Of a stretch of 64,000 nucleotides of DNA, positions 4,836 through 64,000 are shown in pieces. The DNA is from Acidimicrobiales bacterium (GTDB taxonomy: Bacteria > Actinomycetota > Acidimicrobiia > Acidimicrobiales > Bog-793). The stretch's first letter is position 1, and the number at the start of each line of letters is the position of its first letter. The notes below the pieces were generated by a model, which was given only the letters and a program-made list of their open reading frames with translations, was not told the origin of the DNA and did not search any database. The stretch lies in assembly GCA_052146895.1 (NCBI GenBank), contig JBKQLZ010000006.1, forward strand, positions 8,507-72,506. Reading direction: 5' to 3'. The position numbers and the translations under genes were made by a program.

Positions 4836-4839
4836 CCAG

Positions 4840-32442: not shown

Positions 32443-32467
32443 ACAGGAAATAGCCATCTACCAGGTA

Positions 32468-36158: not shown

Positions 36159-36218
36159 ACATTGTCTGGCGCAGTACTAGCCGCCTTCGAGTTCCGACGC
36201 GGGCGTGCGAGGTAAGCG

Positions 36219-36710: not shown

Positions 36711-36813
36711 TTCTTCAGCAAACTACTCGGAGACACTCAGCCTGATTTCCAGCAGCCACCTGATGACGAGCGATTAGCCGACTTCCCTAAAACGCTGCCG
36801 GCTCGCGTCTCTC

Positions 36814-37173
36814 CTACGACGGGCGGCGCACCCTGACGAGATGGCCGCGAACAATGACAATGCAACCTCGGAACTCTTCGAGGTCGTGATGCGTCGTCAG
36901 CGAGGACAGCGTTGAGAGCACCGACGACACTGCCTGACTGTCGGGGCGCAGGACAACGATCCCACCATGCGATCCGGGCGGATAAGAGCGCACGTCCCCG
37001 AATCCGCGATCGAGGGTGACGAGCACTCGATCCTCTGAGCTGGCAGCCGCAAGAACTGCCGGGTCGTCGCGACCAGCGAGGCCTTCACCGATCACCGTCT
37101 CGACGTCATGGCCGATCTCCGTGAGGACCTGACCAGCGCTCGCCGGGAGGTTTTCGTCGAGCTTGACCTTCAC
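36814..37173 (-). CDS. DUF5615-family (PIN-like) putative toxin
   Basis: MKVKLDENLPASAGQVLTEIGHDVETV...DRVLVTLDRGF. 4-nt overlap with the upstream DUF433 gene. Confidence 0.8.
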   Translation of the reverse strand: MKVKLDENLPASAGQVLTEIGHDVETVIGEGLAGRDDPAVLAAASSEDRVLVTLDRGFGDVRSYPPGSHGGIVVLRPDSQAVSSVLSTLSSLTTHHDLEEFRGCIVIVRGHLVRVRRPS

Positions 37174-37412
37174 CCTTGGGTCGGGTCGAGCGGCATGATC
37201 TCGTCACGAGCGAGCGCCGCTGCGTAGGCGAGCGCGGCATGGACCACTCCTTGGGGCAAGGTCGGGTACTCCTTGCGCAACGCATCCTCGCTCATGCCTT
37301 CCGCCAAGCAATCCAGCACGACGGTCACCGGAACGCGGGTGCCACGGATCACCGCCTGGCCGTGCAGCACGGCCGGGTCCGATGTGATCAAGTCGAGAAG
37401 CTCCGTAGCCAT
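37170..37412 (-). CDS. DUF433-family putative antitoxin
   Basis: ITSDPAVLHGQAVIRGTRVPVTVVLDCLAEGMSEDALRKEYPTLPQGVVHAALAYAA. ATG at 37412. Confidence 0.8.
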   Translation of the reverse strand: MATELLDLITSDPAVLHGQAVIRGTRVPVTVVLDCLAEGMSEDALRKEYPTLPQGVVHAALAYAAALARDEIMPLDPTQG

Positions 37413-37547
37413 GTCACCATGATCGCGCCTGAGCGAGCACACTGCTCTGTCGTCGGCTCGTGCTAGTAAGGACGATCTCGACGCGGGCCGATGGCACCGC
37501 CGGCGAACGCCAAGCGGTCCGTACCGGTCGCAAAGCGCGGTCCAGAA

Positions 37548-37585
37548 GGACGCGGAAAAGACGCGCGAGGACGCGAAAAGACGCG
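37548..37585. promoter_or_regulatory. Cluster of GGACGCG/AAAAGACGCG repeats inside the attR arm (putative arm-type sites)
   Basis: ggacgcggaaaagacgcgcgaggacgcgaaaagacgcg shares its core with the 32514-32540 cluster. Confidence 0.45.
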
Positions 37586-37702
37586 AATTCGGCGATACTG
37601 GGCGCGACAGGGCAACACCGAACAACATAGAGAAAGTGACTCTGAACAGGGAGAACGTCGGCTGAGCAGGACGAACGTCCGTTCGGAATTGACCCCGGAT
37701 TA

Positions 37703-37748
37703 CGCCTGAAAAGCGCGAGGTCACCGGATCGATGCCGGTCCCGACCAC
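37703..37748. repeat. attR: 46-bp direct repeat identical to the tRNA-Phe 3' half
   Basis: Base-for-base identical to 32397-32442. Flanks diverge immediately on both sides. Confidence 0.9.
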
Positions 37749-37839
37749 TGAAAGGCCCTGGTAGGGCGGACACGCCAAGCCCATCTTTCGGCTGAGCGGT
37801 CGACCGTGCCCTCTACGTGCCTTTCGGCTGACCGCATGC

Positions 37840-38073
37840 TCAGCGCTCGCGAGCCAGCACGTCTTCGGAGTCGTAAGCGCCCTCGTGGCCCGCAGGACAC
37901 TCGAACAGCACCCCGAGCAGCACGACATGACCATCGCGGATCGACTCGAAATCCCAAACGTTCGGAAGCAGGAATTCCGTCAGGCAAACGGCGCAATGTA
38001 CCGCGGCTGTCGCAGACGTGTATTCCACCAGTTGCCTGACCCTCGGCTCTTCATTTGCGCGACGAGCGGGCAA
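37840..38073 (-). CDS. Hypothetical small protein
   Basis: 77-aa ORF in an otherwise unassigned gap just outside attR. One CxxC plus CPxxH. No motif recognised. Confidence 0.3.
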   Translation of the reverse strand: MPARRANEEPRVRQLVEYTSATAAVHCAVCLTEFLLPNVWDFESIRDGHVVLLGVLFECPAGHEGAYDSEDVLARER

Positions 38074-48972: not shown

Positions 48973-49049
48973 GGAGCAAGACTAGGAACAGCGGCGAGAC
49001 TCGCGCTACGCGTTGACTGCTCTGCGGGCGGTTGCTAGACACCCTTGTC

Positions 49050-52000
49050 ATGAAGCTCTCTCGAGTAATAGCCGGTGCCCTACCGCTGTTCGCCATCTTG
49101 CCAGCGAGCGCTGCGCTCGCGGCTTCCGCGAGCACCTACGGGAACCGCCTCGCAGAGATCGCCGCTCGACCGAGCTTGCCTGCGCACACCGTCATGATCG
49201 GGAACGTCCGGACGTCGATGGAGATCTCCGGCGCGCTCGGCCTTCGCTCGCGAGATCAAACGGGCCTCGCCCGCTTCCTAGCCGAGGTGACGGACCGGAC
49301 CTCGCCGGAGTTCCACCAGTACCTGACGAGGAGCGAGTTCGCGAACCGCTTCGGCGCCTCGGAATCAGCTGTCAGCGCAGTGACACGAGTGCTTCGGTCC
49401 GACGGGTTGCACCCGGCCGTGTCGTCGAACAGGATCCTCGTCACCTTCCATGGGGACGCCGCGAACATCGAGAGGGCGTTTCGGACGGGGTTGGCTGATT
49501 TTCGTTTCTCCAATGGGCGCACCGGTTGGGGCACGACGTCAGCGGCTCGCTTGCCTGCGGGGATCGCCCGCAGCGTGTCGGGTGTCGTAGGGCTCGATGA
49601 CCTCGTGCACATGTCGAGCGGCATCGAGAAGGCGCCCCGCGTGGCGCGTGGGGCCGTAAAGGCGTCAGCGCTCCCGAAAGCTTCTCCCGGAGCGCCGTCG
49701 GCGTGCGGCAGCGCCAACGCGCAGGCGGACTACGGCGGCGTGACCGCTGATCAGCTCGCGCACGCTTATGGCGTGGACGGGCTCTACGCGACCGGTGACC
49801 TCGGCGGGGGCCAGACAGTCGACATCTTCGAGCTCGAGCCCTTCTTGATGAGCGACATAGCCGCCTACGACAAGTGCTACTTCGGGACGAGCGAGACCAA
49901 CAGCACCCACGTCTCGGTCACCGAGGTCGACGGGGGCGCCGGTACAGGTCCGGGCTTTGGCGAGGCGGCACTTGACGTCGAGGACGTGTCGACGATCGCG
50001 CCAGACGCCGAGATACACGTGTACGAAGGCCCGAACACGACGTTCGGTTCGCTGGACGCCTACAACGCCATCGCGACCGCGGACAACGCCCGCGTCGTCA
50101 GCACGAGCTGGGGCCTGTGCGAGTCGGCGTTCCAGTCGGGCTCCCCCGGGACTCAGGAAGTGGAGAGCGAGATATTCGCCGAGACCGCGGCGCAGGGTCA
50201 GTCCGTCTTCGCCGCCGCCGGCGACGACGGCTCCGACGACTGTGCCAACCAGGCGCCTACGCCTGTCGCCAACGAGCTCTCGGCAGATGACCCAGGCACC
50301 CAGCCCTACGTCACCTCGGTCGGTGGCACCACCTTCACCGACATCACCGAGCCCCCCACAGAGCAGGTCTGGAACGACGGCAACGACTGGGGCGCAGGTG
50401 GCGGCGGCATCTCCGACACCTGGGCCGAGCCGTCCTGGCAGGCCGAGGCCACAGTGGCTGGGATCGCGAACGGTGCGGGGACCGGTGAGCAGCCGTGCTC
50501 TGACGACCCGAGCGGCGTGGGCACGGCCTACAACCTGGCAGGTGTCGACACGACGTTGCCATCCGGCACCCCGTGCCGGATGGTTCCCGACGTGACGGCG
50601 CTGGCGGACGAGTTCACCGGGATCACGTCGTACTGGGACGGCGAGATGAGCACGGTCGGTGGGACGTCGTCGTCGACGCCCCTGTGGGCTGCGATGACAG
50701 CCGACATGGATGCTTCGTCGTTTTGCGATGGGACGACGTTGGGTTTCGTGAGCCCGTTGCTGTACGACGTCGCTTCTTCCAGCACGTCTGACTACGCGCA
50801 CGCCTTCAACGACATCACTGTCGGCAACAACGACAGCCTCGGTGTGGGCGACGGGACCGACTTCCCGGCTGGGACCGGGTATGACCTCGCCTCAGGGCTG
50901 GGCTCGCCGAAGATCACCAACCCCGACGGTGACCCCGGCTTGGCGCAACAGGCGTGTGCGATGGTGCAGGACTCGAGCAACCCGCCGATCGTCTCTACTG
51001 TCTCCCCCTCCTCAGGGACGAACCAGGGCGGCACGAGCGTGACGATCACAGGCAACAACTTCGGCACAGCAGCTGGTGGCGTCTATGTCGGGACTCAGGC
51101 GGCGACGGTGGTCAGCTGGTCGTCGACCTCGATCTCGATCGTCACGCCGACCTACAACGCCCCACAGGGGACGGTGCTGCCGGCAGGAGGCACCGCACCC
51201 GTGACCGTCGTGACGACAGACCCCGAACGATCGAGCTCACTCAACCCCACGAACAGCGTCTTCCACTATCTCGGTTATGCCGGCGGGACCACGCCGGTGG
51301 TCGACTACGTCGGCCCGACCGCGGGTAACGCCGCTGGTGGGTACGCAGTGGACATCGTCGGCTCAGGCTTCACAGGCGCCACGAGGGTCACCTTCGGCGG
51401 CGTGGAGGCCACGAGCCAGATCGACGTGAACGACAGCAACATCACCGCGACCGTCCCGGCTGAGACCGGGGCAACGGCGTGCGCGTTCCCGAGCAACAGC
51501 TCGGTCTGCCAAGTCGAGGTGCGGGTGACCACTCCTGCCGGTACCTCGGCCGAGGACACGATCCTTCCCTCTTACTCGGGCGCGATCGAATTCGAGCCGG
51601 ACGAGGTCATCTACTACACACCGGGCACTGAGGTCGTCGCTGCTGCGTCCGAGTTCGACTACGCCCCGACTCCCGACGTGACCTCGGTCACACCCAAGTA
51701 CGGTGCCGAAGAGGGTGGATCGACCGAGGACATCCACGGGACGGGATTCAACGTCCTCACGTACTTCTGGACGGATTTCGGGCCGGTCGGTCCGCAGTCG
51801 AGTCAGGACTTCTTCAACCTGTCGATCACGCCGACCGACCTGTTCATCGTCAACAGCGGTGACGAGTTCCTCTCGGGACCGACGACAGAGCCCCTGGCTC
51901 AAGCGGTCACCATCGTCACCGCCGGAGGCCCTTACCTCGTCCCGAGCGACTTGTTCGCCCTGGCGGGACGGCCGACTGTGACAAGCCTTTCCACCCATGT

Positions 52001-52850
52001 CGGGACGACCGAAGGAGGCGGCACCCTCACGCTCGCGGGCCACGGTTTCATGGCAGTCGAAGACGTCGTATTCGTCGACGACAACTCGGGATTCGGAGCG
52101 ACCGAATCGACCGCCTTCCTAACCCAGACCGACACCACGTTGAAGATCGTGCTCCCAGGCAACCTGCCGGGGGCCACGAACTTGGTCGCCTGCACCGAGA
52201 CGGGATGTAGCAGCGAGAACTCGAGCCTGGACTCGTTCGTCTTCGGCTATCCCGGTGCTCCCGTGATCTCGAAGATCTCCCCACCGTCCGGTCCAGCCGC
52301 TGGAAGCGCGTCGCTCAAGGACGGCGTCGAAATCTCCGGCACTTTGCTCGATTCTCCGGTCGCCGTGAAGTTCGGCAACACGGAAGCCACCGTCTTCGAG
52401 AACACGGGCGCCGTACCCGGAGGTGGGAACGCGTACGAGATCCTCGTCGAGGCCCCGCCGGGCAAGGCGGGCACGACGGTGACGGTCGCAGTCGAGACTG
52501 CCGGCGGAGAGGCCACCGGTCACGGGTTCAGCAACACGAAGAGCTACACCTACAAGAAGAGCGCTCCTAGCGCTCCGACGTCGGTGACAGCGAAGGGTGG
52601 GAAGAAGGCGATCAGCTCGTCTTGGACGACGCCTTCATCGAACGGCGGCTCGCCGATCACCGGCTACAAGGTCGAGCTGCTCTTGAAGGGCGACTTCCGC
52701 AAGCCCGCTCAGAAAGTGACGGTCTCGGCGTCCACTCACTCCTACGCCTTCACGGCGGTGGCGCCGGGGAAGTACACGGTCGCCGTGGCTGCCGTGAGCG
52801 CTCTCGGGACCGGCTACTTCGCAAGCTCGGCAGTGGTCGCAGCTACTTGA
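49050..52850 (+). CDS. Secreted sedolisin (peptidase S53) with pro-domain, five IPT/TIG-like repeats and a C-terminal fibronectin type III domain
   Basis: Signal peptide MKLSRVIAGALPLFAILPASAALAASA. S53 motifs GEAALDVEDV, STSWG, GGTSSSTPLWA. Repeats begin PIVSTVSPSSG, PVVDYVGPTAG, PDVTSVTPKYG, PTVTSLSTHVG, PVISKISPPSG. FN3: SAPTSVTAKGG...GGSPITGYKV. Confidence 0.85.
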   Translation: MKLSRVIAGALPLFAILPASAALAASASTYGNRLAEIAARPSLPAHTVMIGNVRTSMEISGALGLRSRDQTGLARFLAEVTDRTSPEFHQYLTRSEFANRFGASESAVSAVTRVLRSDGLHPAVSSNRILVTFHGDAANIERAFRTGLADFRFSNGRTGWGTTSAARLPAGIARSVSGVVGLDDLVHMSSGIEKAPRVARGAVKASALPKASPGAPSACGSANAQADYGGVTADQLAHAYGVDGLYATGDLGGGQTVDIFELEPFLMSDIAAYDKCYFGTSETNSTHVSVTEVDGGAGTGPGFGEAALDVEDVSTIAPDAEIHVYEGPNTTFGSLDAYNAIATADNARVVSTSWGLCESAFQSGSPGTQEVESEIFAETAAQGQSVFAAAGDDGSDDCANQAPTPVANELSADDPGTQPYVTSVGGTTFTDITEPPTEQVWNDGNDWGAGGGGISDTWAEPSWQAEATVAGIANGAGTGEQPCSDDPSGVGTAYNLAGVDTTLPSGTPCRMVPDVTALADEFTGITSYWDGEMSTVGGTSSSTPLWAAMTADMDASSFCDGTTLGFVSPLLYDVASSSTSDYAHAFNDITVGNNDSLGVGDGTDFPAGTGYDLASGLGSPKITNPDGDPGLAQQACAMVQDSSNPPIVSTVSPSSGTNQGGTSVTITGNNFGTAAGGVYVGTQAATVVSWSSTSISIVTPTYNAPQGTVLPAGGTAPVTVVTTDPERSSSLNPTNSVFHYLGYAGGTTPVVDYVGPTAGNAAGGYAVDIVGSGFTGATRVTFGGVEATSQIDVNDSNITATVPAETGATACAFPSNSSVCQVEVRVTTPAGTSAEDTILPSYSGAIEFEPDEVIYYTPGTEVVAAASEFDYAPTPDVTSVTPKYGAEEGGSTEDIHGTGFNVLTYFWTDFGPVGPQSSQDFFNLSITPTDLFIVNSGDEFLSGPTTEPLAQAVTIVTAGGPYLVPSDLFALAGRPTVTSLSTHVGTTEGGGTLTLAGHGFMAVEDVVFVDDNSGFGATESTAFLTQTDTTLKIVLPGNLPGATNLVACTETGCSSENSSLDSFVFGYPGAPVISKISPPSGPAAGSASLKDGVEISGTLLDSPVAVKFGNTEATVFENTGAVPGGGNAYEILVEAPPGKAGTTVTVAVETAGGEATGHGFSNTKSYTYKKSAPSAPTSVTAKGGKKAISSSWTTPSSNGGSPITGYKVELLLKGDFRKPAQKVTVSASTHSYAFTAVAPGKYTVAVAAVSALGTGYFASSAVVAAT

Positions 52851-52864
52851 AGCGGTCGCGCTCT

Positions 52865-52883
52865 GCCCGGCTCAACACCGGGC
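52865..52883 (+). terminator. Short GC hairpin after the S53 gene
   Basis: gcccgg-ctcaaca-ccgggc lies 15 nt after the stop. Weak (6-bp stem, no T-tract). Confidence 0.3.
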
Positions 52884-53073
52884 TCTGGCGCGGCGAGGTA
52901 CGCTTGCGCCCGTGGTTGACCGACTGACTCAGCGATTTGCATGCCTCCCGGCCCATCCTTGGCTGCCGGGGGACGCTTCGACGCAGTAAGTCGGCGACTC
53001 CGCTCAGGCGAGCTCTCGGGCCGGGAGGGTTTCCCCCACCCAAGTCCAGCCCACCTGAGAGCAAGGAGTCACC

Positions 53074-54255
53074 ATGTCTGTTTCACCGTCTGTTTCACCG
53101 TCATACCTCACGCCTGACCAGCTGCGGCGTGACCAGGCAATTCGCGACCTGTCAGATCCGGCCCATGGCGCCCACGCGCTCCAGCTGCTCGTCGAGAGCG
53201 CCGTGGAGCGGCTCGTGAACGCCTGGAACTGCCAAGTCCGCTGGTGCCGCGGGCCCCGGGTGGTGCCCGTGGCGGACAACTACGACCGGCTGGGTTTCGC
53301 AGCTGACGCGATAAGTCGCGAGACCCGTTACACGCGCTACGTCGACCCGGGTCACGTGCTGCGTAGCCACTCGAGTGCGATGGTCCCTCGAGCGCTGCGC
53401 GAGCTCGCCGCCTCGCCCTTCGACGACGTCCTGCTCACCTGCCCTGGCATCGTCTTCCGCCGGGACGCCATCGGCTGGCAGCACACCGGCACGCCGCAGC
53501 AGCTCGACCTCTGGCGGATCACCCGGGAGCCGATGGGGGACGGTGACATGGACGACATGATCTCGTCTCTTCTCCAAGTGCTCGCTCCGGGCCGCGTTCA
53601 TCGAGAGGAGGCACGGGTGCATCCGTACACCCTCAACGGTCGCCAGATCGACGTCTTGTGGGACGACCGCTGGGTGGAGGTGTGGGAATGCGGAATTGCA
53701 CACCCAGCCGTCCTCGAAGCCGCCGGCCTCGCGGGTTGGCACGGGCTCGCCCTCGGGATGGGCCTCGATCGGCTCCTAATGCTGACCAAGGGCATTCCCG
53801 ACATCCGGCTCCTCCGCTCGACCGACCCGCGAGTGAGCCGTCAGATGCTCGATCTCTCCCCGTACCGACCGGTGTCCTCGATGCCGCCGGTCAAGCGTGA
53901 CCTGTCCATCGCCGTCGCTGCGGACGAGGACGAGGAGACCCTTGGTGACCGAGTCCGCGACGCGCTCGGCGACGATGCCTCCAGCGTCGAAGAGGTAGCT
54001 GTCCTCTCAGCCACGCCGTACTGCGATCTGGCTCAGCCGGCACGCGCGCGCCTCGGGGCGCTCCCCGGGCAGAAGAACGTTCTTGTCCGGGTGGTGCTGC
54101 GTGCTCTGACCGATACGCTCACCGACGGTCGGGCAAACGAACTGAGAGACCGTGTCTACGCGGCGCTACATCAAGGCGCGGCTTTCCAGTGGGCCGTCAC
54201 CCACGCAGCGACCGAGCCTCACTCAGCCGGCCGGGAACCTAGCCTTGAGCTGTGA
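53074..54255 (+). CDS. PheS-like class II aminoacyl-tRNA-synthetase core fused to an FDX-ACB (ferredoxin-fold anticodon-binding) domain; paralogue of unknown function
   Basis: Motif 2-like CPGIVFRRDAIGWQHTGTPQQLDLW and motif 3-like GLALGMGLDRLLMLTKGIPDIRLLRS. The C-terminus (PVSSMPPVKRDLSIAV...VLVRVVLRAL) resembles an FDX-ACB fold. No PheS N-terminal coiled coil and no pheT nearby. Strong RBS aaggag. Confidence 0.75.
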   Translation: MSVSPSVSPSYLTPDQLRRDQAIRDLSDPAHGAHALQLLVESAVERLVNAWNCQVRWCRGPRVVPVADNYDRLGFAADAISRETRYTRYVDPGHVLRSHSSAMVPRALRELAASPFDDVLLTCPGIVFRRDAIGWQHTGTPQQLDLWRITREPMGDGDMDDMISSLLQVLAPGRVHREEARVHPYTLNGRQIDVLWDDRWVEVWECGIAHPAVLEAAGLAGWHGLALGMGLDRLLMLTKGIPDIRLLRSTDPRVSRQMLDLSPYRPVSSMPPVKRDLSIAVAADEDEETLGDRVRDALGDDASSVEEVAVLSATPYCDLAQPARARLGALPGQKNVLVRVVLRALTDTLTDGRANELRDRVYAALHQGAAFQWAVTHAATEPHSAGREPSLEL

Positions 54256-54827
54256 CACCTCCGAACGAAGTGATCCTCGACTCTCTACAAAGACGCCTAC
54301 GTGCGATGCACTCGCTCTGGTACGAGGCAGTCGACACAATGGACGCCGAGCAGGTCAACCATGTGGAGCGTGAGCCGGTCCTCCCGATCGCGTTCTCGCT
54401 GTTCCACCTCGCGCAGATCGAGGACGGCTCGGTCACGATGCTCGGCGGGCCGCCCCTCGTCTACGACCAAGCCTGGGCGGATCGGATGGGCCTCGCCATC
54501 GCCGATCACGGCAAGCACCGCACCGTCGAGGAGATGGTGGGCCAGCGGATCGGCAACTACGAAGGCTTCCGCGAGTACCAGCGGCTCGTCTTCGACAAGA
54601 CGGAGGCCTGGTTGAGCTCGGTCGACCCCGAGTCGCTGACCGACGTCGTTGTCGCTCGCCCCTTCCCGCCGCAGATCGCGTCCACGTTCAGCGCGCGGGT
54701 TGCGGGGGACGAAGGGATCACCCGCCTCGATGGAATCGAATGCTGGATCTATCAGCACGGCCTGCGCCACATGGGAGAGATCGAGCATGCCCGAGCGCTC
54801 GTCGGATTGCAGGGCATGACGTCCTGA
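54252..54827 (+). CDS. DinB-family (DinB_2/YfiT-like) protein
   Basis: Four-helix-bundle pattern with His residues (LWYEAV...NHVE...FHLAQIEDG...YQHGLRHMGEIEH). GTG 54252 overlaps the upstream stop (GTGA). Confidence 0.7.
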   Translation: MTPPNEVILDSLQRRLRAMHSLWYEAVDTMDAEQVNHVEREPVLPIAFSLFHLAQIEDGSVTMLGGPPLVYDQAWADRMGLAIADHGKHRTVEEMVGQRIGNYEGFREYQRLVFDKTEAWLSSVDPESLTDVVVARPFPPQIASTFSARVAGDEGITRLDGIECWIYQHGLRHMGEIEHARALVGLQGMTS

Positions 54828-54870
54828 GGATTGACCCATTGGCGCCTGGTAGATAGGTACGGTTTAGGTC

Positions 54871-55278
54871 ATGGCGAACAGGCGCAGGCGAAGCACGTCG
54901 GGCCGCCCGGCGGTGATCGCGCTCCTCGTCTGTATCGGCTTGGTTATCGGGCTCGCTGCGGCATTTGCAGCCAACAAGTCCCAATCGAGCGCTCCGCCAT
55001 CTCCCGTCACCGCGAAAGCGGTCGTCGTGGCAACCCTCAAGCCGGACGTATCGAGCGCGGAGGCGACCGCGATGTCCAACCATTACCTGACTTTTGCGGG
55101 CGTCGCCGCTGTGCAGGCAGTGGGCACTTCCTCCGAGGAGTTCTTCATGGCCCAAACTGCGACGACCTTGCAGATCGATGCCGTCGAGTCCGCTCTGCAA
55201 TTCGATCCGTCGGTCGCTCACGTGAGCCTCGAAGGCCCGAGGACATGCGAGAAGACCTGCCTCCGAAGTAGCCGATGA
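54871..55278 (+). CDS. Membrane-anchored hypothetical protein (FtsX-extracellular-domain-like alpha/beta module)
   Basis: Arg-rich N-terminus, one TM (VIALLVCIGLVIGLAAAFAA), then VVVATLKPDVSSAEATAMSNHYLTFAGVAAVQAV. Confidence 0.45.
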   Translation: MANRRRRSTSGRPAVIALLVCIGLVIGLAAAFAANKSQSSAPPSPVTAKAVVVATLKPDVSSAEATAMSNHYLTFAGVAAVQAVGTSSEEFFMAQTATTLQIDAVESALQFDPSVAHVSLEGPRTCEKTCLRSSR

Positions 55279-55751
55279 CGACCGAGAGGATCCGGTCTCG
55301 GCCACTCCAGGTACTCGCGGCTATCTGGATCGCCCTGTCCCTCATCCCGATAGGGATCTGTGTCAACGCCATGATCGGCGCGACGGCGGCGGTGACGCTC
55401 GTAGCGCTCTCAGTGCTGGCTGTGAACGTCATCATCGGGATCGTTCTCGTCCGGCTCGCCCGCACTGGAATCGATCTCGACTCGAGAGGCGTCGTCGTGA
55501 GGAACCTGATGCAGACCGAGCGCGTGCGCTGGGCGGAGATCTCGGGCGTCGGGCGCGACAGGGTCGAGGGCTTGCCAGAGGCGGCTCGTTCCGACCAGCC
55601 CGTCCGGATCCACCGGTATGCCGGGTCGGACGTCGTCGTGGGTGGTCTCCTCGTCACGAAGTCGGAGAAGAGCCGACGCGCCATCGAGGCGCTCGTGGTC
55701 TACCTGAACCAGCGACTCGAAGCGTCTCGCTCCGCCCTCGGGCCGACGTGA
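55275..55751 (+). CDS. Membrane protein with bacterial PH-like domain
   Basis: Two TM segments followed by GIDLDSRGVVVRNLMQTERVRWAEISGV. ATGA overlap with the upstream gene. Confidence 0.5.
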   Translation: MTTERIRSRPLQVLAAIWIALSLIPIGICVNAMIGATAAVTLVALSVLAVNVIIGIVLVRLARTGIDLDSRGVVVRNLMQTERVRWAEISGVGRDRVEGLPEAARSDQPVRIHRYAGSDVVVGGLLVTKSEKSRRAIEALVVYLNQRLEASRSALGPT

Positions 55752-55755
55752 GCCA

Positions 55756-56577
55756 TTAGGTGATCGCAGCCTCGTCGGGGCACGCCGTCGTCGACGAAGC
55801 GCTCGTGGTAGTCGTCGTCGTATCCGCGTTCGGCAGATAGATGGTGGTGCGCCAGGTGGAGATCTGGTTGCCCGAGTACCCGGCCGTGCGGGGCCCCGTC
55901 TGGAACCCGACAGAGATGTTGACGCTGTCGATGTCGAACAAGGCGCAGGCAGGCACCGTGCCGTTGTCACTACCGCTGGCTCCGAGTTGGTTCCCGAGCG
56001 AGTCGAAGTACTCGAACGAGTAGGTGTTCGTACTCGTCACGTTTGTTGGAGCGATCGAGTCTGTCGCCTCGATCGTGGAAGATTTACCGGACGGATTGGT
56101 CACGACGACGGCGAACACCCACGGATTGTGCCCCGTTGGAGGCGTGCCGCAAGAGGGGACTTTGCTGACGAGCGAGCCGAAGCAGGCCGTGAGCGTATCT
56201 GTCTCCGCTGCACCGTACGTGCCGGGGTAGGTGGTGCCGGCAATGGTTCCCGTGTTGTCGTCGATGCCCGAGTACGTGGTCATCGTGAAAGACGTTGCGC
56301 CTGCTGCCGTCAGACCTACGGCCGCGTGGAGGAAGGGCGTCACGGCTTCGGACGCGATCTGTTCCTGCTGAAGCGAGTACTCCGTCCCGAGCACCGAGGA
56401 CGACGACTTCTCGAGCAGGACAACCGCAGCTGCGCTGAGAGCCATGATGATCGAGATCACGAGGAGCGTGACGAGCATCTCAGTCAGCGAGAAGCCGCTG
56501 TCGTCGCCTACTGCGCGCTTGCGGGTGGCTGCCAGCGCGATCCGAAACGGAGCTCGGACGGTGCCTTGACGATGCAT
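55756..56577 (-). CDS. Type IV pilin-like protein (prepilin N-terminal cleavage/methylation domain), 273 aa
   Basis: Class III signal: basic leader, G|FSLTEMLVTLLVISIIMAL with Glu at +5. Ser/Thr/Gly-rich extracellular part. RBS gaggcgggag before ATG 56577. Confidence 0.75.
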   Translation of the reverse strand: MHRQGTVRAPFRIALAATRKRAVGDDSGFSLTEMLVTLLVISIIMALSAAAVVLLEKSSSSVLGTEYSLQQEQIASEAVTPFLHAAVGLTAAGATSFTMTTYSGIDDNTGTIAGTTYPGTYGAAETDTLTACFGSLVSKVPSCGTPPTGHNPWVFAVVVTNPSGKSSTIEATDSIAPTNVTSTNTYSFEYFDSLGNQLGASGSDNGTVPACALFDIDSVNISVGFQTGPRTAGYSGNQISTWRTTIYLPNADTTTTTTSASSTTACPDEAAIT

Positions 56578-56588
56578 GCTCCCGCCTC

Positions 56589-59066
56589 TCAGCTTGCGTT
56601 CGAGCACTTAGGTGTCGTGCTCGCCGACAGGTTTACGCCACCGCAGTTGACCCAGCCTGCTGGGAACCAGTTGTCTGCGGACGCCGTGACGGCATCTGGT
56701 GGTGCCAGATAAGCGAGGCGAGTGTCATAAGTGAACTGTTTTGTATATCCAGTGACACCACTGTTGGCGAAAGGCCCTCGATACTCGGCTACGTCGGAAC
56801 CGTTGAGGTACATACCACCCAACTGAGCCCCCACGTTGTAATTCTGGATCCCGAACGAGCCGTTGAGCGCAATTAACAGTGCGTCTACGACAGCCCCTGT
56901 ACCAACCGTTCCGGTGTCACACGTCGGCGTAACATCGGCCATGGTGTCGGTTGCGGTCGTGCCGTTGTTCGCACACTGGGAGTCGTTCGTACAGGTCTCG
57001 CTCGTGCCGGAGCCTGAACAGGTGCCAGCCTGCACGGGGTGCGAGAACAGAATGTCGCCGTTGGCGTACAGCCCGAGCAGGTCGGGCGTGGTCTCGCTCG
57101 CGCATGCTGCAGGCAGCCCGTTGAGCGGGCTCTGAAGCGTCCCGCCGGTGTCAGCGCAGCTGTATGTCAGGTCCCGGGTGATGTAGATGTTGTTGTCCGC
57201 ACCGATTGTCAGCTCGCCGTTGAGCTCTCCCTCCACGAACAGTGTCCCGCCAGTGCAATCCGAACTGTCCGGCAGCGCTGTGGGCTGCTCCGGGTTCAAG
57301 AAGCATGTCGTGCCTGCTCCGGTATTGCCGTCGGTCGGGGAGACAGACGAGGCGGAGTTGAGCGTGTCCAGTGTCGTCGGGCTCCAGTAGTTCGGGTCGG
57401 TAGTGCTCGATGGGACATTCTGCACGTAGACGACTCCGTCGGTGGGCATGGGAATGTCCGTGATCAACGGGTTCGTCGGTGAGAACGTACCGTTGCCGCC
57501 ACAGTGGGTCCCCGCGCCGGAGTAGTCGGTCTTCTTGGAGAGGGGGCTCCAGACGTCCATGTATTCGGCGCCTGCCTTATACACGAGCTCGATCATCGTC
57601 GGTCCGGTGTAGAGGCACCCGAACGTGGGGGTCGTGGCGCTGTTCACACCGTCAGCCCAGCCCTCCAACGCGTCATCGAACTGTGGAAGTACTTCGTTCT
57701 GGTCGAGCTGCACAGGGCCGTGCGCGAGCGCGGGTACTCCCGCGCCCGAGCCGGTGCAGTTGATCTGGTCGATCGTGAACCCCGCGGGCACCCACTCTCC
57801 CGCCTCGGCTCCGGTTCCCTTCTCGCTTCCAGGCCACTCGTACTTGAAAGCGATGTCGTTGGGCGTCGAAGTCAGGAGCGAGTACGGCGACCCGTTGAAC
57901 GCCGGGTCTCCGCCCGCGTCGCACATGTGGAGCTCGTCCTTGCTGAAAACGGGCCCGGAAAAGCTCTCGCCACCGATGAAGTCGTAAGGGGTGGCGCACG
58001 GAGAGGCGGGAATCGTCAAGGTCTCGCTCTCACCCGTTGCGGGTGTGAAGGTGTACGTCAAGGCAGCTTGCGTGAAGCCCGCGGACTCGGTCGACGGGTT
58101 GCCGGTTCCCCCGGAGAGCTTGTTGGCGGCTGGAGGAATCCCGTAATACGGGCCGTAGTACGGGTACTGGTACGAGAAGTCCGTCTGCCCGGCGATGGCG
58201 GCCGATGGCGACTGACTGCCGAGAGAGTCGATGAAGTTGTTCTCCTGATAGCCCTCGTAGCCGCACAGCGCCGTATTGAGATAGACGTTGTCCACCGTCA
58301 CCGGCACATCCGCGTCGCTCGTGTAGGTGTAGTTGATGAGCACTTGCGATTCTGGAGACGAGCTCGTCGTAGTGACGCCGTTGTCGGTGAGCGACTCGCT
58401 CACGTTGGGATCGGCGATCGCTGTCGAGCTAGAGGTGGTGGCGGGGTAGCTCGGATCGAGCACCTCGGTGTCGGAGTAATACGCGTTCTGCAGGTAGGTC
58501 GAGTACTTCTTGAAGGCGATCACTGCCGATTCGAAAATGTAGTGTTTCGCGATCCCGGCGCGCCCGGTGATCGTCGCCAGCACCTCGTTCGGGAACGTGT
58601 CGGCAGCCGCGGTGCTCCCGAGGAAGCTTGAGTTCGCCTGAACGTGGAATGCCTCGCACGGGGTGGTGCATTGCTGCCCGGCCGAACCTTGGACACAGAT
58701 CTGCTCCCACCCGTTACCCGCCGCATCGGCACAGAGTCCCCCGGAGATCGTGTTGGTGCCCATGGAGGGGTTGGCGGGGTCGACCGGGTCGGTCGTGCCG
58801 TACGTGTAGTAGGTGGGGTCGTGGTTCAGGTCGTTGCGGTAGTTCTGGACGCCCGCCTCGAGAGCCGCGTATGCCGCGTGCTCGGAACTGGCGACGCTCA
58901 CGAAGGGCAGCTCCTGAGTGACCGATGCGACTAGGCCGGCACCAAGGGAAGCGAGCAAGAACACGACAACCAGTACGAGCAGGAGAGCCTGGCCTCCCTC
59001 GCCCCGGTCACGGATGACCGCGTGCCGAACTCGCTTAAAGGCCTTAACTGTGATCAAGCGACTCAT
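56589..59066 (-). CDS. Very large (about 825 aa) pilus-associated protein with PilX-N/TadG-like hydrophobic N-terminus lacking Glu+5
   Basis: RDRGEGGQALLLVLVVVFLLASLGAGL N-terminus, then an 800-aa T/S/G/N/Y-rich, Cys-containing extracellular region. Sits between two prepilin genes. RBS gagggag before ATG 59066. Confidence 0.65.
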   Translation of the reverse strand: MSRLITVKAFKRVRHAVIRDRGEGGQALLLVLVVVFLLASLGAGLVASVTQELPFVSVASSEHAAYAALEAGVQNYRNDLNHDPTYYTYGTTDPVDPANPSMGTNTISGGLCADAAGNGWEQICVQGSAGQQCTTPCEAFHVQANSSFLGSTAAADTFPNEVLATITGRAGIAKHYIFESAVIAFKKYSTYLQNAYYSDTEVLDPSYPATTSSSTAIADPNVSESLTDNGVTTTSSSPESQVLINYTYTSDADVPVTVDNVYLNTALCGYEGYQENNFIDSLGSQSPSAAIAGQTDFSYQYPYYGPYYGIPPAANKLSGGTGNPSTESAGFTQAALTYTFTPATGESETLTIPASPCATPYDFIGGESFSGPVFSKDELHMCDAGGDPAFNGSPYSLLTSTPNDIAFKYEWPGSEKGTGAEAGEWVPAGFTIDQINCTGSGAGVPALAHGPVQLDQNEVLPQFDDALEGWADGVNSATTPTFGCLYTGPTMIELVYKAGAEYMDVWSPLSKKTDYSGAGTHCGGNGTFSPTNPLITDIPMPTDGVVYVQNVPSSTTDPNYWSPTTLDTLNSASSVSPTDGNTGAGTTCFLNPEQPTALPDSSDCTGGTLFVEGELNGELTIGADNNIYITRDLTYSCADTGGTLQSPLNGLPAACASETTPDLLGLYANGDILFSHPVQAGTCSGSGTSETCTNDSQCANNGTTATDTMADVTPTCDTGTVGTGAVVDALLIALNGSFGIQNYNVGAQLGGMYLNGSDVAEYRGPFANSGVTGYTKQFTYDTRLAYLAPPDAVTASADNWFPAGWVNCGGVNLSASTTPKCSNAS

Positions 59067-59091
59067 CTTCTGCTCCCTCGGGCAGGTCCCA

Positions 59092-60717
59092 CTAGGTAAC
59101 CGTGACACTGGCGGCTCCGGTGGTCCACGTCCCTACGCTCGAGGCGCAGTTGGTGATCGGAGCATCGGACTGGGGTATCTCCGAACTCGAGTAACAGACT
59201 CCGAATGGCGTGACCCATATGTACTGGGCCGCACCGCTGAGGGTCGCGGTGCCGACCGGAGACAGTGCGTACTCACCGAGAGGCAGGCCGACGTTGAAGG
59301 CCACTGGCGACGCCGACTTCGTACACCCGGTCGGATCGGTATAGGCGGCAGACGAGCCGTCCACCTCTGTGAACGTGAGGCCACTCATCACATGAGTGAT
59401 GGCAGAACAGGTGACGGTGATCTGGGCGTAGTACAGCTGAATCGTCAACGTTGGCTCGGTCGTGTTGGCAGATGATTGCGTCGACAGCGGGATCGGCGGC
59501 GTTACCGACGTTGGTTGCGTGAATGAGCCGGTGTAGTAGTACGCCACCGGAGTGGTAGCGGACGAGAGCGCCAGAGGGTTGGATTCGTTCTCGTCGCCGG
59601 CATACACCGGTGAGTAACCGTCCGAATAGGGATAGAGATAGAGATCCCCTCCGGCGGACGTCGAGTACGTTGCCGCCGCGTCGCCGAGCGGGCACGTGGC
59701 ATTCACGGAGTTGCACTGGAGATGTTCGTTCTCAACGCCGACGCGCACGTACGGTGGTTCCCAAACCGGTGATTTTGCGGCGCCCGGGCTCGCTCCACCG
59801 CTCGGGTATCGATACGTGGCGAACGAGACCGGAACGGTCGCGGCATCTGCGAGATAGAAGGGGTTGACAACGGTGACGCTGCCGGCGGTGACTGTGATTC
59901 CTGTCTGGGTCGGGAGGCCCGGTGCGCCTGCCTCGCCGCCGTTCTCGTCGAAGTCGACAATGGCAGGGCTGGTGCTCGTGCACTGACCGGCCACGGCACC
60001 GGGGGAGGAGCAGTAGGCCACGGTGACTTGGTAACTCCAGCCGGCGGCGGCGTCGAGATTCTGAAACACAGCGCAACCAAGAGCATTGGTGTCCTCGAGC
60101 TCCGAGATCGTCTCCCCGGTTGGGACGGAGGGCTGAGCTGAAGTCTCGGTCCAAGTGCCGGTTGCCTGGAACCAGACGTTGTCAACAGTGTCGAGGGTCG
60201 TGTTCAGGTTGTCGACGGGGACCGCGATCTCACCACCGTTCAGCGTCAGGTTCCCAGAACCTTGTGCCGCCGGCGCGAGCTCGGTCGTGAGCGACACCGG
60301 GCCGCCCGAGACAGCGGTGTTCTGCCCCGCTCCGCCGCCCTCGCCGTGCCAGTAAACCTTGGCCGTCACAAAGTAGATCTCTTGGCTCTCGCCAGAACCA
60401 GCAGGCTCCAAGCAAGGCGACACGCCTGTCACGGAGTTGTTGATGGTCACGGTGAGTGCTGACGTGAAGACTGTCTGCCCAATCGTGACGCGGCCGTTCA
60501 CGGTAGCGCTCGTGTTGGGGTTGAACGACTGGTTCTGTGCCAGCAACTCCTCGTTCTCGAGCACCTGAGTCGCGACGTCGTCGGCTTCAGTCTGGAGGTG
60601 GCTGTAGCTCGCGGTCCGGTTGGTGTTGATGAGAATGAGCGCGGTCGGCAGCGAGGTGATGGTGAGAAGAACGACGGCCACAATGACCTCGACGAGGCTG
60701 AAGCCGACGTCCGACAT
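59092..60717 (-). CDS. Type IV pilin-like protein, unusually large (541 aa)
   Basis: Short leader MSDVG|FSLVEVIVAVVLLTITSL with Glu+5. Long Cys-containing extracellular region. Confidence 0.75.
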   Translation of the reverse strand: MSDVGFSLVEVIVAVVLLTITSLPTALILINTNRTASYSHLQTEADDVATQVLENEELLAQNQSFNPNTSATVNGRVTIGQTVFTSALTVTINNSVTGVSPCLEPAGSGESQEIYFVTAKVYWHGEGGGAGQNTAVSGGPVSLTTELAPAAQGSGNLTLNGGEIAVPVDNLNTTLDTVDNVWFQATGTWTETSAQPSVPTGETISELEDTNALGCAVFQNLDAAAGWSYQVTVAYCSSPGAVAGQCTSTSPAIVDFDENGGEAGAPGLPTQTGITVTAGSVTVVNPFYLADAATVPVSFATYRYPSGGASPGAAKSPVWEPPYVRVGVENEHLQCNSVNATCPLGDAAATYSTSAGGDLYLYPYSDGYSPVYAGDENESNPLALSSATTPVAYYYTGSFTQPTSVTPPIPLSTQSSANTTEPTLTIQLYYAQITVTCSAITHVMSGLTFTEVDGSSAAYTDPTGCTKSASPVAFNVGLPLGEYALSPVGTATLSGAAQYIWVTPFGVCYSSSEIPQSDAPITNCASSVGTWTTGAASVTVT

Positions 60718-60941
60718 CTCCCGCACTCGTAGGCGTCGCAAAGTCACCTCAGCTATACGGTGCAGCACAAGAAACGGTCGTTGCACAGTCACTCATAGTA
60801 GTACTACGAACACGGCACGCGCGAGTCAGCGTAATCCGATAACACGAGACTACATAAGAACACACCAGACGCCCTCGCCTCAACACCTCGGCTACGACGC
60901 GAGCTTAGGGCCCTCGGGCGCGAGGTGATAGGACAGGCGAC

Positions 60942-61742
60942 TTGAGGACTCCGGTCGTCCACGAGTTCGTAATCGTCATGAGTGCGCTGTTCGGTCTCGT
61001 CATCGGATCGTTCCTCTCCGTGGTCACCTCGCGAGTGCCGCGCGGCGAGTCGATCGTCCACCCCAATTCCCATTGCCCGAAGTGCGGGAGCGAGATCCAG
61101 CCTTACGACAACATCCCTCTGTTGTCTTACGCCGTCCTCGGTGGGCGGTGCCGCTCATGTTCGGTCCACATCCCGTGGCGCTACCCGCTGCTCGAGGCGA
61201 CCACGGGCGCCTGCTTCGCGATGATCGCCTGGCGAGTCGGTTCAGCTTGGACCATCCCGCCCTTTTGCGTACTGGCAGCCGGCCTGATCGCGGTGTCGGT
61301 CATCGACATCGACCACATGAGGGTGCCGTCGGCTGTGCTCTTCGTCACCGGCGGAATCGCCGCACCCCTTCTTCTCGTCGCGTCGGTGGAGACTCGAACG
61401 ATCGGACACCTTCTATATGGGTTGCTGGCCGGTGTCGCGGCGTTCGCGCTGATGTTCGGCATCCGCGAGGCCTACCGGTCGGGACTCGGTTACGGCGACG
61501 TGAAGCTCGTCGCGCTCGATTCCTTCTTTCTCGGTTCGCTCGACACGCGGGGCGCAGGTCTTGCGATCGCGGGCGTCGCTCTGTTGCTAGGCGTCATCCT
61601 TGCCGGGGCCTTCTCGCTCGTGCTCGTCTCGAAGGGCACCGCGAGCGGAAAGACGAGACTCCCTTTCGCGCCGTTCCTTTCGGCGGGCGCCCTCACAGCA
61701 GTGTGCTTCGGGCCTGCAATAGTCAGGGTCTGGATCGGATGA
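60942..61742 (+). CDS. pilD: Prepilin peptidase (A24 family, PilD-like)
   Basis: N-terminal Zn-ribbon CPKCGSEI...CRSC, catalytic Asp motifs VIDIDHMRVP and GLGYGDVKL, 6-8 TM segments. Start may be ATG 60978. Confidence 0.9.
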   Translation: MRTPVVHEFVIVMSALFGLVIGSFLSVVTSRVPRGESIVHPNSHCPKCGSEIQPYDNIPLLSYAVLGGRCRSCSVHIPWRYPLLEATTGACFAMIAWRVGSAWTIPPFCVLAAGLIAVSVIDIDHMRVPSAVLFVTGGIAAPLLLVASVETRTIGHLLYGLLAGVAAFALMFGIREAYRSGLGYGDVKLVALDSFFLGSLDTRGAGLAIAGVALLLGVILAGAFSLVLVSKGTASGKTRLPFAPFLSAGALTAVCFGPAIVRVWIG

Positions 61743-61834
61743 GCGCCGCCCGATGGCGGACTCCGACGCTGTCATATGTACTGCTACCGTCAGCTCATGA
61801 CCCAGGCTGAGCGCACAGCCTTCCGACGCGCCCG

Positions 61835-63724
61835 ATGCTCTCTCGAGCGCAACCGATGAGCTCGGGCACGACCGGAGACGCGAGCGGCACGGGGATCGTG
61901 CTGCCGGAGGCGCCGGCGCGGCCGCCTCGTCTCGGGTCCGCAGTCCCTGTCGACGCGGGCATCGAGCCGGTCAAACCGGCGAGCGCGCTCGCCTTGTTCG
62001 CTGGTCTCGCCGCTGCGGCTCTGACTGTCGTGGCTGACCCGCAAGTCGGATCCGACACCTTCACACCGAAGTACCTCGTCATGCTGCTCATCGCGGCGGT
62101 CGGGGTCGTGCCGCTCTACCGCCTCGCCAGGTCCGGCCCGCTGCGGGTTCCCGCTCGCTTCGGTGTGGCGTTCCTACTTGTGGCGTTCCTGGCCGCATTG
62201 AGTTCGGCGGTGCCGGTCGAGGGTTTCTTCGGGACTTACCTGTGGGGCACGGGCTGGTTCTTCTGGATGGCCTGTGTCGGGGGTTGGGCGATCGGGGCGA
62301 CGCTCGACGAGCACGGCCGCGTCATCTTGATCCGCGGGCTGGTCGGCGGTGTGCTTGCGAACGCGCTCCTCGGCATCGTCCAGGTCTACGGAACCAGGCT
62401 CGACCCCACCTTTTTCACTGCGGGACTGCTCCAGACCTTCGACGGTCAGGCTGACGGGTTCCTCGGTAACCCGATTCACCTCGAAGCGCTCCTCATGGGT
62501 GGCCTGGCGCTCGTGCTGGGTCGGGCTTGCCGGAAGCCCTGGCCCTGGGCGCTCTGGACGGGCGTCATCGCCTTGGCGCTCGAGATGTCCGCAGAGCGCT
62601 TTGCTGCGCTCTTGTTCATACCGCTCGTGGCCTACGCCATATGGCGGTACCCGTGGCGGCGCGTCCTCATCTACGCCGGGTCCATCGCCGTTGGCTACGT
62701 CGTCGGGGACCGCACCGGCTCGCTCAGCGTCGTCAACAGGGCCACAGACCTCGCGTCCTCGAGAACCACCGGCGGGCTACGGCTTGCGATCTGGAAGGTG
62801 GCGCTGAAGGCCGACCTGCATCGACCGCTGCTCGGTTACGGCCCGGGCCAGTTCCTCCACGCGACGTCGGCGAGGATCCCGACGTCCCTCGCGGCGCAGC
62901 TCGGACCGGGCAGATACTTCACTGACGCCCACGACATATTGATCGAGGTGATGACGACGACAGGTGTCCTCGGCCTGTTGGCCATTGCAGGGCTGGTTGC
63001 CACCTCGGTGCGAGGCGCCCGCGGCGCCCTCCTCGGCTTTGCCGCCTTGACTCTCGCCGTACGTCTCATCGAACCGCTCAACGTCGGGACGGACCCGATC
63101 GCGTTCATGGCCCTCGGCGGCGCCGCCGGATCCTTCGTGTGGGACAAGGGGCGAGAGCTCGAGCCGGAGAACATCGCCGCTCGAGTGGTGACAGCCGTTT
63201 GCGTGCTCGCGGCGTTCCTTCTCGGAGCATCGCTCGTCGTCGGCGACTCCTATCTCTACGAGGGTGAGCTTCACTACTCCATTGCGGACGCGCAGACCGC
63301 GAGTCGCCTTCTTCCGGAATGGCCCGACTCAGCGTCGGATCTCGCCCGCGTGTACGCCTACAACAGCATCGTCCACCCCGGGAAGGGCTGGCTCTTCAAG
63401 GCCCGCGCGGCGGAGCTCGCGGCTATCGGACGGGAGCCGACGAATCAGGGGTACTGGTCCGATCTCGGCGACGCTGATCTCGACCTTCACCATATAAGGA
63501 GCGCGATCTACGACTTCGACCGCGCACTAGTCCTCGCACCCTACGAGGACCAGGCTCTTTCCGGACTGGCGACGATCGCGATCAGGCGCCATCAGTACGA
63601 GACCGCCTTCACCGAGGAGCAGCTGGTCTACTCGCTCTACCCGACGCACCAAGAGCTCACGCAGCTTCACGAGATCGAGGCTGATCTTCACCGTTCGAGC
63701 CACAGCAGTCCCGCTTCGCCCTAG
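61835..63724 (+). CDS. O-antigen-ligase-family (Wzy_C) polytopic membrane protein with C-terminal TPR-like domain
   Basis: About 12 TM segments, PLLGYGPGQF and AHDILIEVMTTTGVLGLL motifs typical of WaaL/PglL/TfpO-type enzymes. C-terminal soluble helical repeats. Confidence 0.7.
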   Translation: MLSRAQPMSSGTTGDASGTGIVLPEAPARPPRLGSAVPVDAGIEPVKPASALALFAGLAAAALTVVADPQVGSDTFTPKYLVMLLIAAVGVVPLYRLARSGPLRVPARFGVAFLLVAFLAALSSAVPVEGFFGTYLWGTGWFFWMACVGGWAIGATLDEHGRVILIRGLVGGVLANALLGIVQVYGTRLDPTFFTAGLLQTFDGQADGFLGNPIHLEALLMGGLALVLGRACRKPWPWALWTGVIALALEMSAERFAALLFIPLVAYAIWRYPWRRVLIYAGSIAVGYVVGDRTGSLSVVNRATDLASSRTTGGLRLAIWKVALKADLHRPLLGYGPGQFLHATSARIPTSLAAQLGPGRYFTDAHDILIEVMTTTGVLGLLAIAGLVATSVRGARGALLGFAALTLAVRLIEPLNVGTDPIAFMALGGAAGSFVWDKGRELEPENIAARVVTAVCVLAAFLLGASLVVGDSYLYEGELHYSIADAQTASRLLPEWPDSASDLARVYAYNSIVHPGKGWLFKARAAELAAIGREPTNQGYWSDLGDADLDLHHIRSAIYDFDRALVLAPYEDQALSGLATIAIRRHQYETAFTEEQLVYSLYPTHQELTQLHEIEADLHRSSHSSPASP

Positions 63725-64000
63725 AGCAGCTTTGCGCGCGGAGGCGCCGACCACGTAGAGTGGTCACCAAGGAGGGGGATCTTGATGAACGAGAGTTCTC
63801 GTTTCCCCTCCATGTGCGCGCCTGAGCTGGGGTCTTTCCTCACCGACAGCGGCAGAAATCTCACCGATCGCGGTAAAAATTCGCGCTAGGGGTCGCCACA
63901 GCACCACTCTTCGTGTTATATTGACAACTGCTGGATTCCCGCACGCTCACCAAGCACATGCGAGGGTCTGCTCAAGGAAGTCCAGTATTCATTGACGACA

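Follow-up and report, generated by a model that had tools for sequence, protein, structure and literature searches.

Within a 64,000-nucleotide stretch of Acidimicrobiales DNA (contig JBKQLZ010000006.1, positions 8,507 to 72,506; hereafter the window), three adjacent genes, A, B and C, encode proteins that begin like type IV pilins and continue into large grafted modules that match no Pfam family. One can ask what such proteins might do, and whether they belong to a pilus at all. Having considered the genes, their relatives and their surroundings, we find it very likely that the trio is a complete minor-pilin set, which primes and caps a type IVa pilus of the actinobacterial, monoderm kind and whose subunits carry enlarged modules. 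The three genes are:

59092–60717, minus strand: gene A, a large PilV/GspI-like minor prepilin of 541 aa (leader MSDVG, mature protein starting FSLVEVIV, Glu5, 10 Cys)
56589–59066, minus strand: gene B, an 825-aa protein assigned to the PilX/GspK class of capping minor pilins (conserved G/Q, no Glu5, hydrophobic alpha1, 20 Cys, large beta-rich module)
55756–56577, minus strand: gene C, a PilW/GspJ-like minor prepilin of 273 aa (28-aa leader, G/FSLTEMLV, Glu5, 4 Cys)

Gaps of 25 and 11 nt separate A from B and B from C, and a GGAG-type ribosome-binding site precedes each ATG. The NCBI gene calls on a contig that is 99.95% identical give the same three lengths as the open reading frames of the window. 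GC content at third codon positions is 0.76–0.80 in the three genes, high as in real genes (the window has 65% GC), which together with the conserved homologues described below indicates that all three are genuine; protein A is also a 100% match to NCBI protein P0033 from an Acidimicrobiales metagenome-assembled genome (MAG). Proteins A (MSDVG/FSLVEVIVAVVLLTITSL, the slash marking the predicted cleavage site) and C (DDSG/FSLTEMLVTLLVISIIMALS) start with class III signals that have Glu at +5. Protein B (GEGG/QALLLVLVVVFLLASL, that is G/QALLLVLVVV, then HAAYAALEAGVQNYR) possesses the Gly and the hydrophobic stretch and lacks Glu5. Ser and Thr make up 20–27% of the three proteins, compared to 11% in 16 others that the window encodes; for Asn and Tyr, the enrichment is about 1.4- to 3-fold and weakest in C, and Lys plus Arg are strongly depleted, to 1.3–4%, the proteins being strongly acidic. 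All three Cys counts are even. The original prediction, made from the sequence alone, had described a dense minus-strand cluster of three genes for proteins of about 541, 825 and 273 aa, canonical class III signals with Glu+5 in A and C around a B whose hydrophobic, PilX-N/TadG-like N-terminus lacks Glu+5, and Cys-containing regions rich in Thr, Ser, Gly, Asn and Tyr. Open reading frames and NCBI calls agree on the first of these points, the translations bear out the second, and the enrichment in Ser, Thr, Asn and Tyr and the even Cys counts confirm the third.

Signature models point in the same direction for A and C. Protein C exceeds the cutoffs of Pfam N_methyl (PF07963; 24.8 bits, cutoff 21.2) and TIGR02532 (26.8, cutoff 16.3), while A stays below threshold both with N_methyl (E = 0.0032, 17.4 bits against the same cutoff) and with the NCBIfam model of the PilV N-terminus (E = 3.7e-5). 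Two distant relatives of B, P0026 and P0029, match PilX_N (PF14341) with E-values of 7.5e-5 and 4.6e-3, likewise below threshold (23.1 bits, cutoff 25.5). The class III signal of A and C is conserved in the homologues from related loci, with a G/F..E motif kept among A homologues (alignment A3), and two alignments of the B family (A1 and A2) share a conserved N-terminus, 'GQxLxIV...AAxAAAEAGIQxYR', and invariant Cys. In alignment A1, the G-Q motif and a hydrophobic residue at +5 occur in about 17 of 20 sequences, which comprise all those that have kept their N-terminus, the other 3 being N-terminally truncated. An AlphaFold2 model of B, computed from 32 sequences with moderate confidence (pLDDT 66, pTM 0.63), consists of a 59-residue N-terminal helix (residues 24–82) followed by beta-rich domains; in a Foldseek search, its top three hits, and its only near-significant PDB matches, were chains A, B and C of Thermus ComZ (6qvi).

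Relatives of the operon were collected by a word-indexed search with B, which returned 32 relatives, all from Acidimicrobiales-type MAGs, and by a scan of GTDB species genomes, which gave 31 loci, nearly all from Acidimicrobiaceae/Acidimicrobiales MAGs of peat, palsa, bog, fen and Danish soils. In nearly all loci whose flanks are long enough (about 30 loci), B is accompanied by homologues of A and C, and the C homologues adjoin those of A and B in most loci. The order of the trio is usually A-C-B; it is A-B-C in the clade of the window and C-A-B in locus L040, and C is inverted in L039. In loci L007, L008, L009, L011 and L019, genes for PilB (T2SSE plus MshEN domains), a second MshEN-ATPase, PilC (T2SSF) and PilM are followed directly by the trio and, in L007–L009, then by a small pilin. 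Two further features of these loci are worth recording. Loci L010, L024 and L029 (about 1500–12300) each hold two tandem A-C-B trios whose copies are 64–84% identical, diverged paralogous sets that are possibly alternative tip complexes. Two consecutive PilB-like ATPases are encoded in the pil clusters of L007 (1958–3742), L011 (1853–3520) and L042 (12556–14469); in L007 and L042, the two that were scanned, each ATPase of the pair has an MshEN N-domain, and L042 also contains a short PilT.

The 32 matches of the word-indexed search had made B appear to represent a rare family, a view that we rejected when a profile of the B alignment, searched exhaustively against 1.84 billion representatives, returned 5,553 representative clusters at E ≤ 1e-3, with 1,006 at E ≤ 1e-30. 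Judging from these matches, the B family is widespread, although it has no Pfam model. Most members are 540–640 aa long and share the N-terminus of B and about 440 C-terminal profile positions; one, from the cultured Microbacteriaceae species Conyzicola lurida, is annotated as 'hypothetical protein'. A 592-aa member lies in a Micrococcales-type cluster (L043) with the order pilB-pilB2-pilC-pilA (140 aa)-457 aa-216 aa-B-pilD-pilM-N-O beside rpsL/fusA/tuf, and a Clavibacter MAG (L033) has the same layout, with the trio inside the pil cluster. Another member and its two partners stand alone between relA and hisS. This synteny in full pil clusters and the size of the family indicate that the trio is the regular set of minor pilins in type IVa pilus systems of Actinomycetota, be it linked to the machine or apart from it. 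The Acidimicrobiales version is enlarged, with 541, 273 and 825 aa compared to about 457, 216 and 592 aa in the L043-type cluster.

Pilus genes beside the trio

The immediate surroundings of the operon, on the side of gene A, contain further pilus-related features:

60718–60941: 224-bp intergenic region between gene A and the divergent prepilin peptidase gene, as given by the open reading frame coordinates
60942–61742, plus strand: PilD-type A24 prepilin peptidase/N-methyltransferase, 266 aa (A24_N_bact 6.8e-34, Peptidase_A24 7.9e-9)
61835–63724, plus strand: membrane protein of the Wzy_C (O-antigen-ligase) family, 629 aa (Wzy_C 9.9e-15), with a C-terminal TPR region
63725–64000, plus strand: intergenic region before the major prepilin gene, the window ending 276 bp after the Wzy_C gene

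The peptidase has both domains of the bifunctional type of bacterial prepilin peptidase, and its motifs are intact, with CPKC and CRSC (two CxxC) at the zinc site and the catalytic aspartates in IDIDH and GYGDVK. The 224 bp that separate its gene from gene A presumably hold the promoters of both operons. A PilD gene also adjoins the trio in L001, L005, L006, L027, L040/41 and L033. In the Wzy_C protein, for which NCBI places the start at 61856 (622 aa), the TPR-like nature of the C-terminus is indicated by weak, sub-threshold matches to the Pfam models TPR_2 (0.0028) and TPR_CcmH_CycH (0.013) and by further TPR-like matches. Its homologues are linked to a small pilin, PilD or both in L001, L005–L009, L027 and L040/41, and all three genes recur beside the trio in L001, L005, L006, L027 and L040/41. 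Often, these relatives also encode an initiating sugar transferase (Bac_transf) near the trio; the window has none. From the comparison with pilin glycosylation systems discussed below, the Wzy_C/TPR protein is a candidate pilin O-oligosaccharyltransferase that probably O-glycosylates the pilins.

The gene that comes next could be read from contig L036, which is 99.95% identical to window positions 49437–64000 and runs 6.7 kb further. It encodes a 196-aa prepilin at the equivalent of window positions 64020–64610, with the N-terminus MLQLTRQMRQRSEEEVSDGG/FTLIELLVVLLIIGILLAIAIPTFL (SDGG/FTLIELLVV) and a mature length of 176 aa. The protein scores above cutoff with N_methyl and TIGR02532, matches PilA, GspG and ComGC at its N-terminus and has a C-terminal Cys pair. 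Across distant loci, its mature N-terminus is near-invariant, which fits the expectation for the filament-forming major subunit. The idea that this pilin is glycosylated on a C-terminal Ser, as in Pseudomonas aeruginosa 1244, was dropped, the C-termini of its homologues being variable (…KSAS, …KNA, …GFPA, …PSV).

The original prediction had called the operon an orphan without assembly machinery and had seen no obvious major pilin. The second statement was an artefact of the window edge, as the prepilin gene starts about 20 bp past it, and with this gene, the peptidase and the Wzy_C protein close by, the trio can no longer be regarded as an orphan. In sister species, the trio, PilD and the major pilin are kept intact at 64–88% protein identity (A 67–84%, B 76–88%, C 77–85%, PilD 76–83%, and Wzy_C 64–84%).

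A putative tip complex and its alternatives

From the genes, motifs, synteny and family distribution observed here, we infer the following course of assembly. The adjacent PilD-type peptidase would remove the leaders by cutting A, B and C behind the conserved Gly, and would N-methylate the new N-termini, whereupon the three hydrophobic alpha1 helices would form a priming complex in the membrane. B would take the distal, capping position, like PilX, GspK and ComZ; lacking Glu5, it needs no subunit above it. A, as the PilV/GspI-like subunit, and C, as the PilW/GspJ-like one, would dock below B through their Glu5, and PilB, PilC and PilM-N-O, probably encoded elsewhere in the genome, would polymerise the mature major pilin underneath. 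The trio would thus stay at the tip of the pilus, where it would display about 1,500 residues of disulfide-bonded, acidic, Ser/Thr-rich beta modules; these may serve as plug and adhesin in a system without PilY1, and the neighbouring Wzy_C/TPR protein probably O-glycosylates the pilins.

A tip complex of the GspI/J/K or PilV/W/X type, with a cap devoid of Glu5 and with grafted modules, had already been proposed in the original prediction. This idea has gained support from the synteny of the trio in about 30 loci and from its place in the minor-pilin slot of relatives, and also from the PilV match of A, the pilin-signal models of C, the PilX_N matches of distant B relatives and the ComZ match of B. 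Several observations nevertheless weigh against it. Protein B itself matches no Pfam or NCBIfam model, with no PilX_N match at E ≤ 0.1. Its ComZ match is weak (E = 3.7e-3, probability 0.51, TM-score 0.18–0.25, root-mean-square deviation 17 Å), and a profile of 32 B-family sequences found neither ComZ at E ≤ 10 nor anything else meaningful among all PDB sequences. The AlphaFold2 model of A, built from 8 sequences, has a helix at residues 4–61 followed by strands and is unreliable (pLDDT 43); a fold search with it gave weak, non-significant matches among which the GspI-class proteins EpsI and XcpV recurred. Finally, neither the 64-kb window nor the adjoining 6.7 kb encodes a homologue of PilB, PilC, PilM, PilO or PilT, and none of the best 120 of the 7,986 PilB matches listed comes from the window's own clade. 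That such genes are lacking nearby had been noted in the original prediction for PilB/PilT, PilC and PilM/N/O, and for PilB, PilC, PilM, PilO and PilT it holds throughout the window, of which about 55 kb, and not about 6 kb as then stated, lie on the downstream side of the operon; the PilD gene, however, had been overlooked. Apart from A and C, the window encodes no further protein with a class III signal.

The missing machinery raises the possibility of an uncoupled system, in which A, B and C would be PilD-processed surface glycoproteins, membrane-anchored or released, that act as adhesins or wall-associated proteins and never enter a filament, this lineage having lost the machinery. In about 62 kb of sequence around the operon there is no gene for an ATPase or a platform protein, and most related loci also lack machinery next to the trio. 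The 3.68-Mb MAG contig_13947, however, carries a pilT-pilD-pilB-pilB2-pilC-pilM-pilO cluster with two small pilins at about 382–405 kb and the trio at about 691–713 kb, roughly 300 kb away, indicating that an unlinked trio can coexist with a full machine. As the relatives show, an ATPase/platform cluster unlinked to the trio is a normal arrangement. The conservation of a canonical major pilin, PilD and trio in sister species, the embedding of the same trio in full pil clusters of relatives, and the abundance of PilB orthologues in Acidimicrobiales (7,986 matches at E ≤ 1e-100) likewise speak against such a loss, making this explanation highly unlikely.

A pilus of another kind must also be considered. 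The trio could be the tip of a short competence-type pilus or pseudopilus for DNA uptake, in which B would serve not as an adhesin but as a DNA receptor similar to ComZ. ComZ, which provides the only near-significant structural matches of B, is a DNA-binding protein that acts at the tip together with a neighbouring minor pilin (PMC6561018), and the two diverged trios of some genomes recall the separate competence and motility priming sets of cyanobacteria (bioRxiv 10.64898/2026.02.12.705559). Set against this are the weakness of the ComZ match, which has no sequence support, and the absence of a comEA/comEC-type gene next to the trio in any locus examined; the strong acidity of A, B and C, with so little Lys and Arg, is moreover unfavourable for DNA binding. 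We therefore regard this role as rather improbable. It seems hardly credible that the trio belongs to a pseudopilus resembling that of type II secretion systems, where, as the equivalent of GspI/J/K, it would drive protein export through the thick wall, with the 1,272-aa S53 protease encoded nearby as a possible substrate. Three subunits with a Glu5-less cap do match GspI/J/K (PMC8179133), and S53 protease genes are neighbours of the trio not only in the window but also in L016, L020, L021 and L025. Relatives, however, possess PilM, PilN and PilO, and in one case PilT, which are components of pili rather than of type II secretion systems. The major subunit, a pilin of 176 aa, has a pair of Cys at its C-terminus, genes for GspL/M/C/D were not seen, and the host is presumably monoderm. 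A minor-pilin set of a type IVa pilus thus remains our preferred explanation of the trio.

Further genes in and near the window

Some other genes of this region deserve mention. The S53 protease (49032–52850, plus strand), a secreted sedolisin of 1,272 aa with a pro-kumamolisin activation domain and four IPT/TIG repeats, is encoded 3 kb from gene C. Genes for homologues with 41–43% identity are found in L016, L020, L021 and L025 (about 1000–2860), some 5 kb upstream of the trio; in these loci the trio proteins are only about 22–34% identical to those of the window. A membrane-anchored DUF929 protein is encoded on the minus strand of L036 at 4037–4936, about 1.2 kb beyond the major pilin gene (equivalent to about 65.8–66.7 kb of the window), and also in L005 at 2367–3269; its gene is conserved two genes after that of the major pilin. 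DUF929 is a thioredoxin-like family that usually has CxxC at the site where this protein has an SPLC motif. The protein may have a bearing on the numerous disulfides that A, B and C are expected to contain.

Two GGDEF-EAL proteins of cyclic di-GMP turnover, one of them with PAS and GAF sensors, are encoded in the window at 21502–24078 (minus strand) and 38197–40515 (plus strand). The MshEN domain, found in the ATPases of related loci, binds cyclic di-GMP, and one may speculate that pilus assembly is under the control of this messenger. At 53074–54255 (plus strand), a 393-aa protein combines a PheRS alpha-type core (tRNA-synt_2d, 1.3e-28) with an FDX-ACB anticodon-binding domain in the single-chain architecture of mitochondrial PheRS. 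Its PDB matches include both bacterial PheS and human mitochondrial PheRS, and its gene is syntenic in close relatives. The region of about 32000–38000, finally, may be an acquired island: its GC content falls to 0.60 at 34–36 kb, and its open reading frames mostly lack Pfam matches, the exceptions being an AAA-type ATPase and a DUF433 protein.

Comparison with known systems

According to a 2019 review, the actinobacterial type IV pili studied by experiment were all of the Tad/Flp type, type IVa pili not having been studied in this way (PMC6916266). Actinobacterial type IVa systems are known from genome surveys only, with their minor pilins annotated as 'hypothetical', and a literature search for the trio proteins found nothing. 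What is new here is a widespread, uncharacterised and unannotated actinobacterial family whose three subunits are all enlarged in this lineage, a modest advance that does not amount to a new kind of machine. Recognising the trio as a priming and tip set would improve the annotation of actinobacterial genomes and of soil and peat MAGs, and would show which end of these pili is likely to be adhesive (or to bind DNA). The separation of pilin operons from biosynthesis genes has been noted before in Gram-positives (PMC3244431). Modular pilins are also widespread, numbering over 1,200 proteins in 264 architectures (Raynaud et al., PMC8179133); the same study states that CofB, GspK and ComZ carry modules that no signature recognises and that modular pilins are probably exposed at the tip.

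Closest to the trio are two complexes: GspI/GspJ/GspK, the trimer at the pseudopilus tip in type II secretion, and PilV/PilW/PilX, which with FimU and PilY1 prime the type IVa pili of Gram-negative bacteria. Here, too, three subunits are co-encoded, two of them with G/F..E, and the largest is a cap without Glu5; the trio occupies the minor-pilin slot in the pil clusters of relatives. The subunits of these systems measure roughly 120–330 aa, so that those of the trio are far larger, and B differs in having no PilX_N match. Actinomycetota are monoderm, as the host of the trio presumably is, unlike the hosts of GspI/J/K and PilV/W/X. No FimU/GspH-like fourth subunit and no PilY1 gene were seen, GspK- and PilY1-specific models not having been searched separately. 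In Streptococcus sanguinis, another monoderm with a type IVa pilus and three minor pilins, two of the three, PilB (vWA) and PilC (lectin), are bulky, consisting of a pilin and a grafted module, and are proposed to be tip adhesins, with PilA as the third (PMC8179133, PMC9934059). This resembles the trio; the S. sanguinis modules, however, are recognisable as vWA and ConA-like lectin domains, whereas those of the trio belong to no Pfam family, and homology was not detected.

For the Wzy_C protein, the comparison is with TfpO/PilO of Pseudomonas aeruginosa and PglL of Neisseria. TfpO and PglL are pilin O-oligosaccharyltransferases. Like them, the window protein is a Wzy_C-family membrane protein encoded beside the major pilin, with Bac_transf nearby in relatives. 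It differs from them in its additional C-terminal TPR region and in matching no PglL-specific model, and the pilins of the trio loci do not consistently end in Ser.

With regard to B, two systems with enlarged caps offer a comparison. In the competence pilus of Thermus thermophilus, the GspK-like pilin ComZ, which bears a solenoid, is located at the tip and acts together with a neighbouring pilin in a ComZ-PilA2 tip complex (PDB 6qvi; PMC6561018). B and ComZ share a GspK-like character, a large size, an extensive beta module, an unusual N-terminus and a gene located among those of minor pilins; B exceeds ComZ by about 300 aa, contains 20 Cys, is very acidic and shares no sequence similarity with it. 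The cyanobacterial PilX subfamilies, with their beta-solenoid 'tip plug' (bioRxiv 10.64898/2026.02.12.705559), resemble the trio in having an enlarged PilX-class cap and no PilY1, and in that several priming sets per genome are possible, sometimes away from the machinery. They belong to a different phylum, without demonstrated homology. In both systems, the large solenoid has been proposed to replace PilY1 (PMC6561018; bioRxiv 10.64898/2026.02.12.705559), and filaments are capped by the PilX/GspK subunit that lacks Glu5 (bioRxiv 10.64898/2026.02.12.705559). It is conceivable, if somewhat doubtful, that the trio constitutes a 'tip cassette' of type IVa pili in Actinomycetota, self-contained and relocatable, in which the 825-aa PilX-class cap would replace the PilY1 plug and adhesin; with Thermus ComZ and cyanobacterial PilX as the first two, this would be a third independent case. 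All subunits of such a cassette would bear large, disulfide-bonded and probably glycosylated modules, and tandem diverged cassettes would allow one machine to carry alternative giant tips. Recognition of the trio as a priming and tip set would add a monoderm lineage to the emerging theme that ComZ and the cyanobacterial PilX proteins share, the replacement of PilY1 by enlarged PilX-class caps.

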